Virus record (IMG/VR): IMGVR_UViG_2718217859_000005
From: a virus
Lineage: Duplodnaviria > Heunggongvirae > Uroviricota > Caudoviricetes
Strand: one strand, 5' to 3'
DNA: 45,085 bases
Position numbers and translations under genes: made by a program. The notes under the pieces were generated by a model. The model had not been told where the DNA came from and did no database searches. It saw only the letters and a program-made list of their open reading frames with translations. Of this stretch, positions 2,451 to 17,109 are shown in pieces; the first letter of the stretch is position 1, and each line of letters opens with the position of its first letter.

Positions 2451-3278
2451 TTATTTAACCTGGATAAATGGTGTACTGGCGCCGCTGGTCATGTATTGCG
2501 GCAGTGTGCCGTTCCATTTATTGATGGCTTCCAGCTCCATAACACCGGGGTTCTGGCGCAGAGCTTCACCGCGTAAACGAATAGCATCGGCTTCAGCCTG
2601 GGCTTTTGTGCGAATCGCATCTGCCTGTCCGGCAGCTTCCGCGCGCAACATGTTGGCTTCCGCTTCGCGCTGTTTAACTTCCTGCTCGCGCTGCAGTGTT
2701 TTCTGGTTCGCCGTGACTTTGGCATTAATGCTGTCGAGAACGGTTGGCGGATACTCCGGCTTACCCACATATGAGAGGCTCATTACCTGAATACCGATGG
2801 GCGTCATTTCTTCCTGAATGTCTTTAAGAGCAGCATCCAGCAGCTCAGACTTGCCGCCGTCGATAAATTTGTCGGTGGTCATTTTGCTGGCCAGTCGGTT
2901 AAGTGCGTCGGCGATCTTCTGACGCAGGTCGGTGTCGGTAATGTCATCCACGCCTTTGCGGTAGGTCTGAAACACCGTGGTAACTTTGGATGGATCAACT
3001 TTGTAGGCCACGCCAATGTGATAGCCGATGGTTGTACCGTCACTCATCTGGAAACTGAACGGTTCATCGTAGGTCTTCATTTGCTTGAAGGTGGGGAAGA
3101 TGTAAACTTCAGTATTCCAGCCAGTCCAGTAGCGACCAACACCGACCACCTCACCGACGCCTTTGTCGTCGCCCAGTTTATTTACCTTGATGCCAACATT
3201 ACCTGGTTCAACGCGATCGCAACCGACAAGGCCAATAGTCGGCAGAACAATGGCTAAAGCAAAAATAATTTTTTTCAT
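2451..3278 (-). CDS. SPFH/band-7 (stomatin/prohibitin/HflK-C-like) family lipoprotein
   Basis: 275 aa. N-terminal signal peptide with lipobox (..PTIGLVGC), then a body with SPFH-like features and a C-terminal Ala/Glu/Arg-rich coiled coil (QREQEVKQREAEANMLRAEAAGQADAIRTKAQAEADAIRLRGEA). AAGGA RBS; ATGA stop/start overlap with the upstream small gene. Confidence 0.75.
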   Translation of the reverse strand: MKKIIFALAIVLPTIGLVGCDRVEPGNVGIKVNKLGDDKGVGEVVGVGRYWTGWNTEVYIFPTFKQMKTYDEPFSFQMSDGTTIGYHIGVAYKVDPSKVTTVFQTYRKGVDDITDTDLRQKIADALNRLASKMTTDKFIDGGKSELLDAALKDIQEEMTPIGIQVMSLSYVGKPEYPPTVLDSINAKVTANQKTLQREQEVKQREAEANMLRAEAAGQADAIRTKAQAEADAIRLRGEALRQNPGVMELEAINKWNGTLPQYMTSGASTPFIQVK

Positions 3279-3463
3279 CTTTTATCCTTAGTGAAAGAAA
3301 GACCCTTGTAAATGGCATAAATGCAGGGCGGGGTCAGAAACGCCAGTGCAAAGCCAGAAATAACTGCTATCGTATCCTTCATGGATATAAGGAACGGAAC
3401 AAGTAATCCGTAAATACATGCGATAATTGCCAGTAAAATTACTATTGTGAAATACAGTCTCAT
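3275..3463 (-). CDS. Small hydrophobic membrane protein (62 aa, two predicted TM segments)
   Basis: Track ORF MRLYFTIVILLAIIACIYGLLVPFLISMKDTIAVISGFALAFLTPPCIYAIYKGLSFTKDKR; translationally coupled (ATGA) to the SPFH gene. Confidence 0.5.
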   Translation of the reverse strand: MRLYFTIVILLAIIACIYGLLVPFLISMKDTIAVISGFALAFLTPPCIYAIYKGLSFTKDKR

Positions 3464-3486
3464 TGGTCTGTGGTATCCCGATATTT

Positions 3487-3594
3487 TTAACCGACTGACA
3501 GCACAATAAAGAGAATAATGATTTCAGTTAGTGTCAGTACTGTGGCAAGGATTAAAATCAGTTTTACTCTGTTTAATTCACGGTTGCTTTTCAT
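3487..3594 (-). CDS. Tiny hydrophobic peptide (35 aa, one predicted TM segment)
   Basis: ORF found by eye (MKSNRELNRVKLILILATVLTLTEIIILFIVLSVG); no strong RBS. First position of the SPFH operon. Confidence 0.3.
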   Translation of the reverse strand: MKSNRELNRVKLILILATVLTLTEIIILFIVLSVG

Positions 3595-3639: not shown

Positions 3640-4221
3640 TTAATGTGTCACTGGCGCTTCTGGCATACTATGAGTATTCAGGTCGTTAATCATTTCATCC
3701 AGAAGGAGTTCAAGCCCTTCGCGCCCCATAGCAGAGACAATGAAACCATTATCAGGATCTGCGATGAGCATTTTTTGATAGAGAAACAGAACTCGCCCCA
3801 TGCCTTCAGCTTCGCCATATTTTTCAATAAATCCCCATTCGACATGGTTTTGCAGGGCAATGCGAAGTGGTCCGGGGTAGATACTCAGGCAACCATGTTT
3901 CCCCTTGTAAATAACTGCGCGATCTGTAGTTCCATTATCGTTAGGGATATCAACAGTGCCGTTCTTGTCTTCCTCTTCATTTATAAATGTCGTCACATAC
4001 AGCCATCGCCACTGAGCAACCTTCATATCGACTGAAAATCGTCCCAGCAACCCTGCATCATCGGCTTCAGCAATACATTGCATGATTCTTAAACCGTGTG
4101 AGTTTGGATAATCGTATTCACCATCATTAAGTCGCTGTACGGCATCAACAAAATCAATGGTTGTATTGCCAATTTTTATGCCATGTGGCGTAACTTCTGG
4201 TCGGAACTCTGAATGATTCAT
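3640..4221 (-). CDS. Hypothetical protein (193 aa), unknown function
   Basis: Internal ATG of track ORF 3640..4296 with an AGGAG RBS (MNHSEFRPEV...); ATGA overlap with the upstream 62-aa gene. Confidence 0.55.
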   Translation of the reverse strand: MNHSEFRPEVTPHGIKIGNTTIDFVDAVQRLNDGEYDYPNSHGLRIMQCIAEADDAGLLGRFSVDMKVAQWRWLYVTTFINEEEDKNGTVDIPNDNGTTDRAVIYKGKHGCLSIYPGPLRIALQNHVEWGFIEKYGEAEGMGRVLFLYQKMLIADPDNGFIVSAMGREGLELLLDEMINDLNTHSMPEAPVTH

Positions 4222-4406
4222 AATGTTTGCTCCTTTGCTGGTGGAATAATCGTGTAGCCAGCTCTTTTTGCCATCCACAGAAATGTATCCATGCAACCAA
4301 CGAATTCATTATCCAACAGATGTTTTGAGTAAATTACTTCACCATTTTCAATGGTTAGCAACACTCTTACTTTTTTATGTGTTATGTTTTGTTGTTTTTC
4401 TTCCAT
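4218..4406 (-). CDS. Hypothetical small protein (62 aa)
   Basis: Track ORF 4218..4421 trimmed to the ATG at 4406 (MEEKQQN...), which has a GGGAG RBS; coupled to the downstream 193-aa gene. Confidence 0.45.
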   Translation of the reverse strand: MEEKQQNITHKKVRVLLTIENGEVIYSKHLLDNEFVGCMDTFLWMAKRAGYTIIPPAKEQTL

Positions 4407-4410
4407 TGAC

Positions 4411-4524
4411 TTATCTCCCATATGCTTTGCGCAAATACAGGCTGGCTATATGAAGATAAGAATCTCCATGTTGTGCAATGAGGCAGGCAGTTTTATACGA
4501 TGCCTTATGTTTCAGGAAAGTCAT
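4411..4524 (-). CDS. Hypothetical small protein (37 aa)
   Basis: ORF found by eye: ATG at 4524 with an AGGAG RBS 9 nt upstream; stop overlaps the RBS region of the next gene. Confidence 0.25.
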   Translation of the reverse strand: MTFLKHKASYKTACLIAQHGDSYLHIASLYLRKAYGR

Positions 4525-4602
4525 AACATAATCTCCTGCGAATAAAGGTTGCAACAATCCCCGGCGATAAAACCGTAATAAACATTCAGGGAATATTTAT
4601 TG

Positions 4603-4968
4603 TTATTGCGCTAATTCTTTTTCGGCAGCAGATTTTGCATATTCACATGCAAAATTCAGAATTTCGCTGCCAAGTGTTTTTGTTTCGTGATTACTGGACA
4701 TATGTAATACCTGTGTTGCATGCAATAAATGATAAACATTTACCGCAAATGAGTCCGGCTCCAGACAAATGCCTTCATAATCATCTTGTTGTGAGGTTGT
4801 TTCTGTCATTGCTCCTGAAGTGCATGCGAGTCTGTTTTTGACAATTCTCTTTCCTCTAATCACTATATCGGCAACATCTATTGCCTTTACAACCTCCGGG
4901 AGAAGTTCCGGGTTTGTATAATCAAAGTCATCAACATGGAGAACGGTTATGTTTTCGAACTTTTTCAT
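4603..4968 (-). CDS. Hypothetical protein (121 aa) whose C-terminal half is paralogous to the N-terminal domain of the upstream HTH protein
   Basis: ATG at 4968 overlaps the TGA of the upstream gene (ATGA) and has an AGGAG RBS. Its C-terminal segment (ICLEPDSFAVNVYHLLHATQVLH...LGSEILNFACEYAKSAA) aligns by eye with the N-terminus of the 153-aa protein (LEGLELDSFALNIANLLSAVRTFH...LGIEVMEFIHEYALSAA). Confidence 0.55.
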   Translation of the reverse strand: MKKFENITVLHVDDFDYTNPELLPEVVKAIDVADIVIRGKRIVKNRLACTSGAMTETTSQQDDYEGICLEPDSFAVNVYHLLHATQVLHMSSNHETKTLGSEILNFACEYAKSAAEKELAQ

Positions 4969-5426
4969 GCGCAAGTATCTCCTGCTGTTGGTTTACCGGT
5001 TAACAGCCACATCGGGTCGCAACCAAGGACATTTGCCAGCGGGATAAGCATACTGATAGTTGGTTCATAGTCTCCGCTCTCCCACTGAATGATGATTTCT
5101 TCATCGAGATCGAGCAGCCTGGCGAGTTCGGCGGTTGTTAAGCCGCAGGCTTCGCGTTGGGTGCGAAGGTTAACCAGCCAGCCTTTAGGGAAGGATTGTT
5201 TTTGTTGTGCAGGAGAAGCCGCAGATAGAGCATATTCATGGATAAATTCCATTACCTCAATGCCCAGTTCCTTTGAGCGAGCACAATCCAGAAGATGGAA
5301 TGTGCGTACAGCACTTAGCAAATTTGCAATATTTAATGCAAAGGAATCAAGTTCTAAGCCTTCAAGCGTAACACAGCCGCAGTTGATAAAATTAGTTGTT
5401 TCTGGAGTTGCTTTTAGTGTCTTCAT
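4965..5426 (-). CDS. Two-domain protein: unknown N-terminal domain plus C-terminal XRE-family helix-turn-helix
   Basis: 153 aa; C-terminal segment LRTQREACGLTTAELARLLDLDEEIIIQWESGDYEPTISMLIPLANVLGCDPMWLL matches the XRE/Cro-CI HTH pattern. First gene of a cassette with its own promoter. Confidence 0.7.
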   Translation of the reverse strand: MKTLKATPETTNFINCGCVTLEGLELDSFALNIANLLSAVRTFHLLDCARSKELGIEVMEFIHEYALSAASPAQQKQSFPKGWLVNLRTQREACGLTTAELARLLDLDEEIIIQWESGDYEPTISMLIPLANVLGCDPMWLLTGKPTAGDTCA

Positions 5427-5479
5427 ATACCCACCAACAATTTTAAATTGAATTTAATCAAGTTATAATTGATGGTGCG

Positions 5480-5508
5480 ATATTATGCTTTGAGAAATAG
5501 GCTGTCAA
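5480..5508 (-). promoter_or_regulatory. Near-consensus sigma70 promoter (TTGACA-17 nt-TAATAT) driving the 4965..5426 cassette
   Basis: On the minus strand, -35 TTGACA at 5508-5503 and -10 TAATAT at 5485-5480 with a 17-nt spacer; about 50 nt upstream of the ATG at 5426 and downstream of the cI terminator. Confidence 0.55.
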
Positions 5509-5571: not shown

Positions 5572-6261
5572 CTAACCAAATCTGTTTATATTGAATGGTA
5601 CTGATGAGATCACTTTAGACTGGATATAAAGCAGAGCTAACCCCTCTTTTTCGATGCTCCATGGTTGATAATTGGGGTTATCAGATAACACCATGATTTT
5701 GCTTCCAATTTTTTGAAGTCTTTTCACGTAGCATTCTCCATCAAAACAAAATGCATAAATGCCATCGCCATCAAAATAAGTTACTGTCTTATCAAGAAAA
5801 AGAAGGTCGCCAGGTGAGATTGTGGGAGCCATACTGTCTCCTCTGGCGTTACCTATTTCTATATTTTTGAATGCCCGATTTCCAACAAGGCGTCGGGCAT
5901 ATTCAGGATCAAGTTCTATTGAGCGCACTACATCTATCAAGTCACCACGGACATGAGTTCCATCACCGCAACTAAACTCAACATCAAGGACATTAAACAC
6001 GACGCTATCTGTTCTTGTCTGGTGTTTCTCTTGCGAGGAAAAGGTTGGTGAGGAGTCTTCACCTAAGAACCAGGATTGTGGATAACCGCTAATCTCGGAT
6101 AAATGCGCGAGCTTATCACTCCGTGGAAATGTTTTTCCTGTTGTCCAGTACTGCACTGATTGCGCACTCACACCTAACTTGCGGGCCAGTTGAGCCTGAG
6201 TCCATCCTTTTGCTTTCAGCATCGCGGCTATTCGATTTTCCGTGTTTTTGACGTTCTTCAT
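5572..6261 (-). CDS. cI: CI-type prophage repressor (N-terminal XRE HTH plus C-terminal S24/LexA-like autopeptidase domain)
   Basis: N-terminal HTH (LKAKGWTQAQLARKLGVSAQSVQYW); C-terminal S24 motifs (GDSMAPT with Ser nucleophile, and ..YVKRL.. with Lys). ATG at 6261 has an AGGA RBS; the track start at 6267 is a TTG. Confidence 0.9.
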   Translation of the reverse strand: MKNVKNTENRIAAMLKAKGWTQAQLARKLGVSAQSVQYWTTGKTFPRSDKLAHLSEISGYPQSWFLGEDSSPTFSSQEKHQTRTDSVVFNVLDVEFSCGDGTHVRGDLIDVVRSIELDPEYARRLVGNRAFKNIEIGNARGDSMAPTISPGDLLFLDKTVTYFDGDGIYAFCFDGECYVKRLQKIGSKIMVLSDNPNYQPWSIEKEGLALLYIQSKVISSVPFNINRFG

Positions 6262-6394
6262 GACCAAATCCTGTGGGTTTCTTTACAAGGATAAATCTTT
6301 ACTTGATTTTAGTGTATTCGATCCTTTTGCAACTTGCATGTTAATTTAAACTTGATGTATTTTTGATTTATAAAGTTAATATTGGTGCTTTGTT
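6262..6394. promoter_or_regulatory. Divergent immunity control region (putative PRM/PR and operators)
   Basis: 133-bp AT-rich spacer between divergent cI and cro-like genes. Contains repeated ACTTGAT/TTGAT(T)T motifs (near 6301, 6351, 6364), an AAGGAT/ATCCTT inverted repeat, and a candidate rightward promoter (TTGATG..TAATAT near 6352-6378). Confidence 0.4.
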
Positions 6395-6770: not shown

Positions 6771-7625
6771 ATGATGATCAATAAACAAAAATTAGTCAAC
6801 CCTGAAAACTTGCCAGTTATTGAGTGGCAGGGAGTACGTGTAGTTACCACCGAAACGTTGGCGGCGGGATATGGAACAACGCCAATCCGTATACAACAGA
6901 ACTACATTCGAAACGAAGATCGTTTCGTTGAGGGTAAACACTTTTTCAAAATCAGCGGTGATGAGCTGAAATCTTTCCGACTATCTTTTAGCGAGTCGGT
7001 TAATAAACATACAACATCACTTGTCCTCTGGACAGAACGCGGCGCTGCCCGCATGTCAAAAATCGTCGATACAGACGAGGCCTGGTTGTTCTTCGAAAAA
7101 ATGGAGCAGGCGTATTTTCGTAAAGCAACGCCTTCTTCAAACACTATTCCAGACTTTGACGATCCGATCGCTGCTGCTGAAGCGTGGATTGAAGCCAAAA
7201 AATCCGAACGCCTTGCTCTCGGGTATGCAGAGCGTCAGGCTCGCTACATCAGCAAACTCGAAAGCCATCTCGCCGATGGCATCACTCCTGTGCAGTTCTG
7301 CAAACAGCTCAACGGTGTAAACACTCGTCAGATTAATGCGTTCCTTGAAGAGCGTAACTGGCTGTATGACGACCGTCCGGAGGCTATGTATCCGCGCTGG
7401 CGTGTAAAAGCGTATGCACGTGACCAATACCTGACTGAGCGTTCTGGGCAGGTTGAGCAGGAAAACGGGGAAATGCGCGAGATTTTCAAACCACTCCTGA
7501 AGAAAAAAGGTGCCGCCTGGTTATATCGCCATTATCTGAACGGCGAACTACCTATGAAGAAAACATGGGATGGGCAATTTACCCATAACACTGAGCTCGC
7601 GAATCTTTTACAGGAGAGCAAATGA
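6771..7625 (+). CDS. Phage antirepressor-like protein (KilA-N/ORF6N-type N-terminus, KilAC-type C-terminus)
   Basis: 284 aa; AAGGGGA RBS. Domain organisation typical of prophage Ant proteins as recalled; occupies the cII position. Confidence 0.65.
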   Translation: MMINKQKLVNPENLPVIEWQGVRVVTTETLAAGYGTTPIRIQQNYIRNEDRFVEGKHFFKISGDELKSFRLSFSESVNKHTTSLVLWTERGAARMSKIVDTDEAWLFFEKMEQAYFRKATPSSNTIPDFDDPIAAAEAWIEAKKSERLALGYAERQARYISKLESHLADGITPVQFCKQLNGVNTRQINAFLEERNWLYDDRPEAMYPRWRVKAYARDQYLTERSGQVEQENGEMREIFKPLLKKKGAAWLYRHYLNGELPMKKTWDGQFTHNTELANLLQESK

Positions 7626-7834
7626 TGCAAACCAAGACATGTGTAACTGGTGATGTCGATCTGAAACCTTGCCCGTTCTGCGGAAATCCGGAAGTACAAC
7701 TCATTGAGGTGAAATATTTTCTGGATGGCGATGATGGTTATTACGTCGCATGTACTTGCTGTAACGCAAACCAGATTCCTGATTCGAAAGAACGTGCTGT
7801 TCATGACTGGAACCAGCGCGAAAACGCGGATTGA
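7622..7834 (+). CDS. Lar-family restriction-alleviation protein (zinc ribbon)
   Basis: 70 aa with CPFCG...(17 aa)...CTCC, matching the Lar/RalR-type restriction alleviation fold as recalled; CAGGAGAG RBS. Confidence 0.65.
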   Translation: MMQTKTCVTGDVDLKPCPFCGNPEVQLIEVKYFLDGDDGYYVACTCCNANQIPDSKERAVHDWNQRENAD

Positions 7835-8148
7835 CGGCGAGTAGGTACAAAATGATCCGCAACCAACATATTGATTCTGCAATTTCGGGACGTTACACTG
7901 TTCCTGCACCTTATAAAGCGGGTGCCGGGGGTCGCAGCCCGGAATTGCATACGGCGATATATGACGCGCCTGCGTCTTTTTTATCGTCCGCGCTCACGCA
8001 CGCCAGAATTATGGTGGGCTGGGCAGGGGAGCCGAAAGGCTCGCCGGTTTCCGTATGCGCCGGTACTGCGAACCCTGTTCAGTTCACCACCCATGAGTTT
8101 CGCAGCTCCGGTGGTGGAAGTTATCCATTGCATACGGAGGCTGCCATC

Positions 8149-15528: not shown

Positions 15529-15604
15529 GGCCCTTTAGCTCAGTGGTGAGAGCGAGCGACTCATAATCGCCAGGTCGCTGGTTCAAATCCAGCAAGGGCC
15601 ACCA
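15529..15604 (+). tRNA. tRNA with CAU anticodon (Ile2/lysidine-type or Met), ileX-like
   Basis: 76 nt; 7-bp acceptor stem GGCCCTT/AAGGGCC, anticodon loop CTCATAA, T-loop TTCAAAT, encoded CCA. Closely resembles E. coli ileX as recalled. Confidence 0.85.
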
Positions 15605-15605
15605 A

Positions 15606-15682
15606 CCGCCACTAGCTCATCAGGAAAGAGAGTCAACCCTTTAAGTTGAGAGTGCGAGGTTCGAGTCTCCGGTGGCGGTCCA
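15606..15682 (+). tRNA. Degenerate tRNA-like element (possible pseudo-tRNA; anticodon-loop CCTTTAA)
   Basis: Perfect acceptor stem (CCGCCAC/GTGGCGG) and anticodon stem (TCAAC/GTTGA), but a mismatch in the D-stem and in the T-stem, and C instead of U at position 33. Confidence 0.4.
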
Positions 15683-15684
15683 GT

Positions 15685-15760
<76 letters not shown>

Positions 15761-15763
15761 TAT

Positions 15764-15838
<75 letters not shown>

Positions 15839-16305: not shown

Positions 16306-16731
16306 ATGTTTGGTATTTTCAAAAAGAAAACCCGCAAGGCCATTACCGAAGTGAAGAAGATGGAGAACCGCGACGCAGTGGAGGCGACCGTCTGGGGTGC
16401 GTATTCCATTGCATATGCTGACGGCACCTGTGACGCGAAAGAAATCGCGGTACTGGAGAAAACCATTGCAGCACTTCCTGCCTTTGCGCCGTTCTCGGGT
16501 GAGATTGCACAAATGAGTGCAAATATCCGCGCCCGTTATGAAGCATCGCCGCGTTCTGCCAATGCCGAAGCCCTCCGCCAGCTGGCTGATATTGCAGGTA
16601 CTGATGACGCAGTTAATGTGCTGTGCCTGTGTCTGGATATCGCTGACCAGGATGGTATTGGTCCGGATGAAGAAGCACAGCTCAAGAAAATTGCTCAGGC
16701 GCTGCAGCTACCACTGGAGCAGTACCTGTGA
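16306..16731 (+). CDS. TerB-like domain protein
   Basis: 141 aa; AAGGA RBS. All-helical pattern aligning by eye with TerB (VEATVWGAYSIAYADGTCDAKEIAVLEK...; ...VLCLCLDIADQDGIGPDEEAQLKKIAQAL). Confidence 0.65.
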   Translation: MFGIFKKKTRKAITEVKKMENRDAVEATVWGAYSIAYADGTCDAKEIAVLEKTIAALPAFAPFSGEIAQMSANIRARYEASPRSANAEALRQLADIAGTDDAVNVLCLCLDIADQDGIGPDEEAQLKKIAQALQLPLEQYL

Positions 16732-16892: not shown

Positions 16893-17086
16893 AATGTTAA
16901 ATCCATCACAATTAAGTTGATTGGGCATTGCTGGTTGACGGAGCTTTTGTTAGAAAAAATTTGCATGGTGGATCCCCCCGGGTGGTGGGCATATGAGTGA
17001 TGTATGTTTCTGTTCTGCTCCTTTATTATGCTGATTCGGGTACTGATACTGAATTCATCGGGAGGCACCCGGCACCATGCAAGCAT

Positions 17087-17109
17087 GCCCCTCTCCTGAG
17101 GGGCTTTTT
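17087..17109 (+). terminator. Rho-independent terminator
   Basis: Hairpin GCCCCTC-TCCT-GAGGGGC followed by TTTTTA. Confidence 0.5.

Follow-up and report, generated by a model that had tools for sequence, protein, structure and literature searches.

A conserved three-gene early-left module of a phiP27-like Escherichia coli prophage and the accessory proteins it may encode

In phage lambda, the leftward early operon carries the small non-essential genes for Kil, cIII, Ral, Gam and SieB in its stretch between the immunity region and xis/int; these genes are expressed after derepression, and Pfam models exist for the Kil, cIII, Ral and Gam families. Here we analyse three genes located at positions 3640-4524 of a 45,085-nucleotide stretch of viral DNA (IMG/VR record IMGVR_UViG_2718217859_000005; the whole stretch is called the window below), which encode proteins of 37, 62 and 193 amino acids (p37, p62 and p193). 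The window is a phiP27-like prophage of Escherichia coli O141:H4 P13-6: the prophage of this strain is 100% identical to the window region, and phage phiP27 is 96% identical to it. In the phiP27 record (NC_003356.1) two genes were deposited here, L06 (3669-4307, 212 amino acids) and L07 (4247-4450, 67 amino acids), with starts that make them overlap each other or the 37-amino-acid gene. The trio is typical dark matter of a lambdoid early operon, with catalogued families of which none is characterised. The literature covered, which did not include the original description of phiP27, contained nothing on these genes.

The reading that we favour, with a probability of roughly one half, is that the trio encodes three independent accessory early proteins which act by binding to partners from the host or the phage. 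The genes are translationally coupled and predicted to be co-transcribed in a pL-type leftward early operon; within Escherichia phages they are inherited together, as one recombination module of some 0.9 kb. The three products are not related to each other and most probably function separately, not as one machine. We infer that they are stoichiometric binders and not enzymes, toxin-antitoxin pairs or defence systems expressed in the lysogen: p193 would dock on its partner through a flexible C-terminal tail ending in a near-invariant histidine; p62 would be a free-standing copy of a hairpin-plus-helix module also seen as the C-terminal segment of antirepressor-annotated proteins; and p37 would be a small basic peptide. 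Roles in host takeover, anti-defence or the lysis-lysogeny decision may be conjectured.

The interval is filled exactly by three head-to-tail open reading frames (ORFs) on the minus strand, each with its own Shine-Dalgarno sequence:

4411-4524, minus strand: 37-amino-acid gene (p37), first gene of the module; ATG at 4524, TAA at 4413-4411.
4218-4406, minus strand: 62-amino-acid gene (p62), phiP27 L07, RefSeq WP_000391589.1; ATG at 4406, TGA at 4220-4218.
3640-4221, minus strand: 193-amino-acid gene (p193), phiP27 L06, RefSeq WP_021558722.1; ATG at 4221, stop codon at 3642-3640.
4533-4537, minus strand: Shine-Dalgarno sequence AGGAG of p37, ending 8 nt before the ATG at 4524.
4415-4419, minus strand: Shine-Dalgarno sequence GGGAG of p62, within the final p37 codons, ending 8 nt before the ATG at 4406.
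4230-4234, minus strand: Shine-Dalgarno sequence AGGAG of p193, ending 8 nt before the ATG at 4221.

The p37 stop codon is separated from the p62 start by 4 nt, and p62 and p193 overlap by the ATGA at 4221-4218, a junction which in related loci is either a 4-nt overlap (50 loci) or a 5-nt spacer (25 loci). A preliminary description of this DNA, made from the letters alone, had given these coordinates, the three ribosome-binding sites and the overlap, all of which could be read directly, and had claimed translational coupling of the three genes, which the gene anatomy supports. RefSeq names the products of p193 and p62 hypothetical proteins. A 130-codon ORF on the opposite strand (3643-4035) was rejected, as it spans only 43-74 codons in the homologues.

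The early-left location in a lambdoid (phiP27-like) prophage was also borne out. On the minus strand, a cI-like gene (5572-6267) is followed by two helix-turn-helix (HTH)-related genes, the trio, two small membrane ORFs and an SPFH gene and, further leftward, by DUF5406, DUF4222, a 48-amino-acid ORF, xis and int. The features that bound the trio or lie in its leader are:

4603-5426, minus strand: HTH genes, directly upstream of the trio.
2451-3278, minus strand: SPFH gene, downstream of the trio together with the two small membrane ORFs.
5480-5508, minus strand: pL-like promoter candidate TTGACA-17-TAATAT (consensus scan, 10 of 12 matches), context outside the cassette.
4556-4568, minus strand: conserved 13-mer ATCGCCGGGGATT in the 5' untranslated leader of p37, ending 31 nt before the ATG.

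The trio thus stands, as the preliminary description had placed it, between the HTH genes and the SPFH operon. It also lies between the cI-type repressor gene and xis/int, on the strand of int, and consensus scans found no terminator-like site on the minus strand from 3640 to 5480, which is the arrangement of a pL operon. The promoter candidate, located just downstream of a terminator-like hairpin (5560-5544) that follows the cI-like gene, is likely to be the source of a leftward transcript through the module. Neither promoter-like nor terminator-like sites were found by the consensus scans on the minus strand within 3640-4600; given the pL-like promoter upstream and no promoter-like site of their own, the three products would be made only after infection or induction. 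A terminator-like hairpin just 3' of the p193 stop codon was rejected as weak (-4.9 kcal/mol, z = -0.34), and the p37 5' leader folds no better than shuffled sequence (z = -0.73). The leader 13-mer is invariant across aligned loci that have diverged to about 78% in their coding sequence, is present exactly in 72 fetched Escherichia-type loci and in a single copy in the window, and has no exact match in the loci of other genera; it may be an operator, an RNA element or a recombination boundary.

Order and integrity of the trio were compared in 80 related IMG/VR viral contigs. All three genes are intact and in the same order in 76 of the 80, and the order p37, p62, p193 holds in all 80 wherever upstream sequence is present; the flanks and the SPFH module vary. 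The borders of the conserved unit are given by the Shiga toxin (Stx) 1a-converting phages:

3663-4580, minus strand: module common to Stx1a-converting phages (megablast, query positions 264-1181 of the segment 3400-4800 of the window).

This shared stretch begins some 20 nt within the 3' end of p193 and reaches to about 55 nt upstream of the p37 start; the genes next to the module are quite different in the Stx1a-converting phages and in PhiR49_2, and the Stx1a similarity is limited to this stretch. The region is present in 319 of 5426 complete E. coli genomes (about 6%), always chromosomal and in up to four copies. Two allele types co-vary along it: proteins of 62 and 193 amino acids with the ATGA overlap, and proteins of 60 and 190 amino acids with the 5-nt spacer. 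Ratios of nonsynonymous to synonymous substitution rates (dN/dS) between 0.06 and 0.27 indicate that the three genes are real and under purifying selection.

The largest product, p193, matches PHROG 1515, a family without known function, over its whole length (E = 9.8e-92, residues 1-193 against profile positions 12-203 of 203), and is 91% identical to phiP27 L06, which occupies the same genome position. A profile search of 1.84 billion representatives returned only 137 clusters, and the homologues that could be located lie in prophages or phage-sized 'plasmids', almost all of them from Enterobacterales. Its dN/dS is 0.13-0.20 in comparisons with diverged homologues, at which synonymous sites are near saturation. 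The protein is acidic (isoelectric point 4.8), soluble and of the alpha/beta class; its AlphaFold model (predicted local distance difference test score, pLDDT, 88.9; predicted template modelling score, pTM, 0.84) packs three small beta-meanders with seven helices. Near-invariant positions in 47 diverse members are G34, D37, R72, W73, R120, E128, Y148, G166 and the C-terminal H193, the latter closing a G-x-P-x-x-P-(V/T)-x-H tail that is disordered in the model (pLDDT below 50).

Comparisons of p193 beyond its own family were negative: no solved or viral structure matched the model convincingly, and Foldseek against BFVD gave nothing at E ≤ 0.001; single-sequence and profile searches found no PDB sequence match; Pfam, NCBIfam and PADLOC gave nothing above threshold; and Pfam at E ≤ 1 gave sub-threshold noise for p193 itself and no consistent or above-threshold family for the 47 diverse members. 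No profile of a well-characterised housekeeping phage protein was matched; such a match would have overturned the preliminary description. The latter had also spoken of no recognisable homology; in this it was only partly right, homologues being abundant and assigned to PHROG 1515 and, for p62, PHROG 340, and what stands of the claim is that neither family has a known function. We regard as a doubtful extension of these data that p193 represents a new-fold early effector family of temperate phages whose tail docks on a host or phage target and which would form, with p62 and p37, an undescribed counter-defence or lysis-lysogeny device in Stx-type and other Enterobacterales prophages. Some p193 genes are broken, being split into two ORFs in phi467 (locus L006, 3419-3996) or frameshifted (variants P0034 and P0047), and in the Stx2a phage Stx2_EH2201 the p62 homologue (locus L003, 4306-4506) is frameshifted in its C-terminal half; because of such splits and frameshifts, the genes are taken to be dispensable in at least some prophages.

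The second product, p62, belongs to PHROG 340 (E = 4.5e-24, residues 2-61), another family of unknown function, which is matched by all 30 aligned p62 relatives, includes Fels-1 STM0898.2n and is widespread in Enterobacterales prophages, with at least 635 homologues found in Enterobacterales by profile search. Its AlphaFold2 model (pLDDT 85) consists of a beta-hairpin (14-30) and a helix (39-48), and its dN/dS is 0.09-0.24, again with synonymous sites near saturation in the diverged homologues compared. Nothing above threshold was found for p62 in Pfam, NCBIfam, PADLOC or PDB sequence searches. Three p62 homologues (P0309, P0311, P0312) carry the precomputed Pfam tag PF27490.1; a Pfam family for the p62 domain may now exist.

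The smallest product, p37 (MTFLKHKASYKTACLIAQHGDSYLHIASLYLRKAYGR), is basic (isoelectric point 9.8) and ends in a conserved HIAxL(F/Y)LRKAYG(R) sequence. Its length is kept exactly across Stx1a and Stx2a phages, PhiR49_2, Citrobacter and Phytobacter (61-81% protein identity). Searches with tblastn located it in 36 phage records, in several of which, including Fels-1, it is unannotated. It had no match in Pfam, PHROG, NCBIfam, PADLOC or PDB.

Outside Escherichia the module loosens. Citrobacter, Klebsiella, phage CharmingMan and phi467 keep the same three-gene order with up to three other genes intercalated: Citrobacter youngae has p37, PHROG 1737, p62, a ParE-like gene (PF24732), PHROG 1886 and p193, with a clamp-like gene next; in the remaining loci with this arrangement, p193 is followed by a gene of the ORF6N or Rha type. 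Furthermore, Fels-1 has p62 without p193, and Morganella, Yersinia, Rahnella and Pantoea have p193 without p62; in these four genera p193 is coupled to whatever gene is upstream. ParE-like, PHROG 1737 and PHROG 1886 genes are absent from the window. Since the genes are intercalated elsewhere, and p62 and p193 occur apart, the trio is a recombination module and not an obligate three-part system; judged by gene order, the Escherichia trio is a compact version of a mosaic early-left array whose order is conserved in temperate Enterobacterales phages and runs p37, PHROG 1737, p62, a ParE-like gene, PHROG 1886, p193 and then an Ant/Rha/ORF6N gene. The term cassette used in the preliminary description holds for Escherichia phages in the sense of a recombination module, the order being constant in the 80 contigs; outside Escherichia the genes are separated or single. 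In several genera p193 is followed by a protein of about 190 amino acids (locus L014, 4569-5147; L008, 5584-6177; L023, 4538-5071) that matches PHROG 3007 'RusA-like resolvase' as well as a DNA polymerase processivity-factor PHROG and has a beta-clamp-like N-terminal motif; its 'RusA-like resolvase' annotation looks doubtful.

That the three proteins are independent binders is consistent with the outcome of the signature searches. No catalytic, DNA-binding or membrane signature was found in them; no defence or anti-defence signature was detected via Pfam, NCBIfam and PADLOC, resources that include no curated anti-defence catalogue; and neither the three proteins nor their neighbours had a hit at E ≤ 1 to the defence hidden Markov models (HMMs) of PADLOC-DB v2. 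The host takeover, anti-restriction or exclusion proposed in the preliminary description is a reasonable guess to which none of these results points. Several points weigh on the other side. The binding role rests on this absence of enzyme signatures and not on positive evidence, and the conserved D37, R72, W73, R120, E128, Y148 and H193 of p193 could equally form a catalytic site. The co-varying alleles and the strict linkage in Escherichia are equally expected of a functional complex. The promoter and terminator scans are crude, and the module might have an internal promoter active in lysogens. Finally, the likeness of p62 to antirepressors is limited to about 48 residues; hhalign detected no match of the p62 profile to the ORF6N protein of the window or to any of three Ant/Rha proteins encoded in related loci; and an HMM search of all ORFs of the fetched loci found p62-like ORFs free-standing only, none fused to Ant, ORF6N or Rha.

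Among the alternatives, one in which p62 and p193 form a two-part antirepressor-like regulator of the lysis-lysogeny switch, with p62 supplying the C-terminal module of Ant, survives best, and we still consider it unlikely. It is suggested by two profiles labelled 'anti-repressor', PHROG 4792 (matched by 24 of 30 p62 family members, best E = 1.7e-6) and PHROG 2379 (17 of 30), by the location of the module just downstream of HTH regulators, and by the immediate neighbour of p193, which, as read from ORF lists and annotations, is a gene of the ORF6N, Rha or Ant type in the majority of the loci examined outside Escherichia. The present p62 aligns to positions 192-239 of the 268 of PHROG 4792 and resembles a C-terminal segment of antirepressor-annotated families, and the 'anti-repressor' label probably derives from the N-terminal domains of these profiles. 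The short match counts against this regulator as well, as does the finding that the Ant, ORF6N and Rha proteins of the fetched loci all lack a p62-like segment; tblastn with a Klebsiella p62 homologue revealed no fused antirepressor in the phage collection, and hhalign found no relation between p62 and p193. Pfam detected none of the N-terminal antirepressor domains (Bro-N, AntA, KilA-N, ORF6N, Rha) in p62, which places it outside the Ant type, and neither protein has a DNA-binding or Bro-N/KilA-N domain.

Somewhat less probable again is that p62 and p193, perhaps together with p37, constitute a toxin-antitoxin or abortive-infection/exclusion module, with a small upstream antitoxin and a larger toxin, which would protect the lysogen or stabilise the prophage. 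The ATGA overlap of a small gene with a larger one, the tight linkage in Escherichia and the occasional frameshifting or splitting of p193 are all compatible with it, and in other genera p62 lies directly upstream of, and overlaps, a gene with a ParE-like toxin domain (PF24732). Above threshold, no toxin or antitoxin domain was found in any of the three proteins by Pfam, NCBIfam or PADLOC, and no defence model matches them. The pairing is not conserved, adjacent partners across taxa being expected of a type II system: Fels-1 has p62 without p193, Morganella, Yersinia and Rahnella have p193 behind an ORF6N or ParE-like gene and without p62, and p193 is coupled to whichever gene stands upstream. 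In addition, p62 lacks a DNA-binding domain, the window contains no ParE-like gene, and the genes, for which no separate promoter-like site was found, are inside the repressed pL operon.

The ParE-like gene itself (72 amino acids, PF24732, PHROG 1525) is found directly after, and overlapping, the p62 homologue in Citrobacter, Klebsiella and some E. coli phages, and in other loci directly after the PHROG 1737 gene and before p193; no obvious antitoxin was identified in the loci that carry it:

ParE-like gene in related loci: L014, 3346-3564; L106, 3685-3903; L025, 3420-3635; L006, 3164-3379.

Two further alternatives can be set aside against the preferred reading of separate binding proteins. 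We give very little credence to p193 being an enzyme, as the label '2-polyprenylphenol hydroxylase-related flavodoxin oxidoreductase' would have it. This product name stands on six Klebsiella phage records whose proteins are 46-47% identical homologues of p193:

Klebsiella phage records with the oxidoreductase label: MF695815.1, MK416014.1, MN166823.1, MK422455.1, MK433579.1, MK416019.1.

The family-wide set of conserved polar and aromatic residues listed above would suit a catalytic protein. The name (also given as '2-polyprenylphenol hydrolase/hydroxylase-related flavodoxin oxidoreductase') was rejected as unsupported, the domain scans already contradicting the specific oxidoreductase claim: neither a flavin adenine dinucleotide (FAD)-binding nor a nicotinamide adenine dinucleotide (NAD)-binding nor any other consistent or above-threshold Pfam domain occurs in p193 or the 47 homologues at E ≤ 1, the PDB holds no match by sequence or fold, no glycine-rich nucleotide-binding motif is visible in p193, and the name looks like a legacy annotation passed between records. 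That p37 is a chance ORF or a mere leader, leaving two real genes, is scarcely credible: RefSeq/PGAP does not annotate it in this prophage, the phiP27 record has no coding sequence (CDS) there and no family in the libraries searched matches it, but the ORF is exactly 37 codons long in 76 of 78 related loci, remains intact in Citrobacter and Phytobacter at 61-73% protein identity with synonymous sites near saturation and a dN/dS of 0.06-0.27, keeps a recognisable LFLR(K/A)AYG motif in Pantoea, has a strong Shine-Dalgarno sequence at optimal spacing and is annotated as a CDS in several GenBank phage records.

Several observations concern the neighbourhood of the trio. Upstream, the 120-amino-acid L08-like protein (4603-4974, minus strand) and the 153-amino-acid HTH protein (4965-5426, minus strand) are related through a paralogous domain of some 50 residues, 42-47% identical by tblastn; the L08-like protein matches a 'CII-like regulator' PHROG, and L08 looks like an HTH-less paralogue of the adjoining regulator. 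Downstream, a 35-amino-acid ORF and a 62-amino-acid membrane protein (3275-3594) form with the SPFH gene (2451-3278), all on the minus strand, a separate indel 3' of the trio, present in most of the 80 related viral contigs; elsewhere the trio directly abuts DUF5406 or DUF4222. A DUF72 gene adjoins the prophage in RefSeq. In the right arm, Rfam matches above gathering scores were obtained for isrK (7906-7982, plus strand) and C4 antisense RNA (8007-8094, plus strand), within or beside a gene named 'ash family protein' by RefSeq, which suggests an antisense control module similar to immI of the P1/P7 type. RefSeq annotates a Lar-family restriction-alleviation protein (7622-7834, plus strand) in the rightward operon, beside an ORF6N protein (6771-7625), so a candidate anti-restriction gene already exists outside the trio. 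Three tRNA genes and a match to the small RNA STnc100 lie at 15529-15835 and 16934-17109 (plus strand), and the ORFs just 3' of the tRNAs (for instance a 141-amino-acid ORF, 16306-16731) show, on inspection only, no apparent likeness to Shiga toxin subunits.

The module is present in many Shiga-toxin-converting prophages (Stx1a, Stx2a, Stx2d and phiP27-type), so that an effect on induction, lysogeny or host physiology could bear on the biology of Stx phages. Being well folded, restricted to phages and without a convincing structural match, p193 would be a reasonable target for structural and interaction studies; its fold and conserved tail, the cross-genus unannotated p37 and the possible link of p62 to antirepressors are the points of modest interest. 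Annotations can be corrected on three points. RefSeq missed the conserved 37-codon gene in this prophage, and the records of phiP27 and Fels-1 lack it too. For phiP27 L06 and L07 the deposited starts probably lie too far upstream, the positions of the ribosome-binding sites and the starts of the homologues favouring 193 and 62 codons (for p62, the homologues favour 62 amino acids over the 67 annotated in phiP27). The third point is the unsupported oxidoreductase label on the Klebsiella phage homologues.

Compared to known systems, the trio resembles a type II toxin-antitoxin locus in having a small gene followed by a larger one with a 4-nt overlap, and in p62 relatives lying beside a ParE-like gene, but differs in its lack of toxin and antitoxin domains, its unconserved pairing and the absence of a detected promoter of its own and of a ParE-like gene. 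With Ant-type antirepressors p62 shares the segment of about 48 residues, and p193 often stands beside ORF6N-, Rha- or Ant-type genes in other genera; p62, with its 62 residues, has no N-terminal Bro-N, KilA-N, ORF6N or Rha domain. PHROG 340, the family of phiP27 L07, includes p62; its homologues in Fels-1, Klebsiella and Citrobacter follow a PHROG 1737 gene, and those of Klebsiella and Citrobacter, unlike that of Fels-1, precede a ParE-like gene, whereas p62 here touches p193. None of the members of PHROG 1515 is characterised, and the family lacks both a Pfam model and a solved structure; phiP27 L06 belongs to it like p193, and differs in a deposited start further upstream (639 nt in all) that overlaps L07. 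The trio sits in the same kind of position as the early-left accessory genes of lambda (Kil, cIII, Ral, Gam, SieB), to whose products no sequence similarity was found; a Pfam-A scan at E ≤ 1 gave nothing for p37 and p62 and sub-threshold noise for p193.

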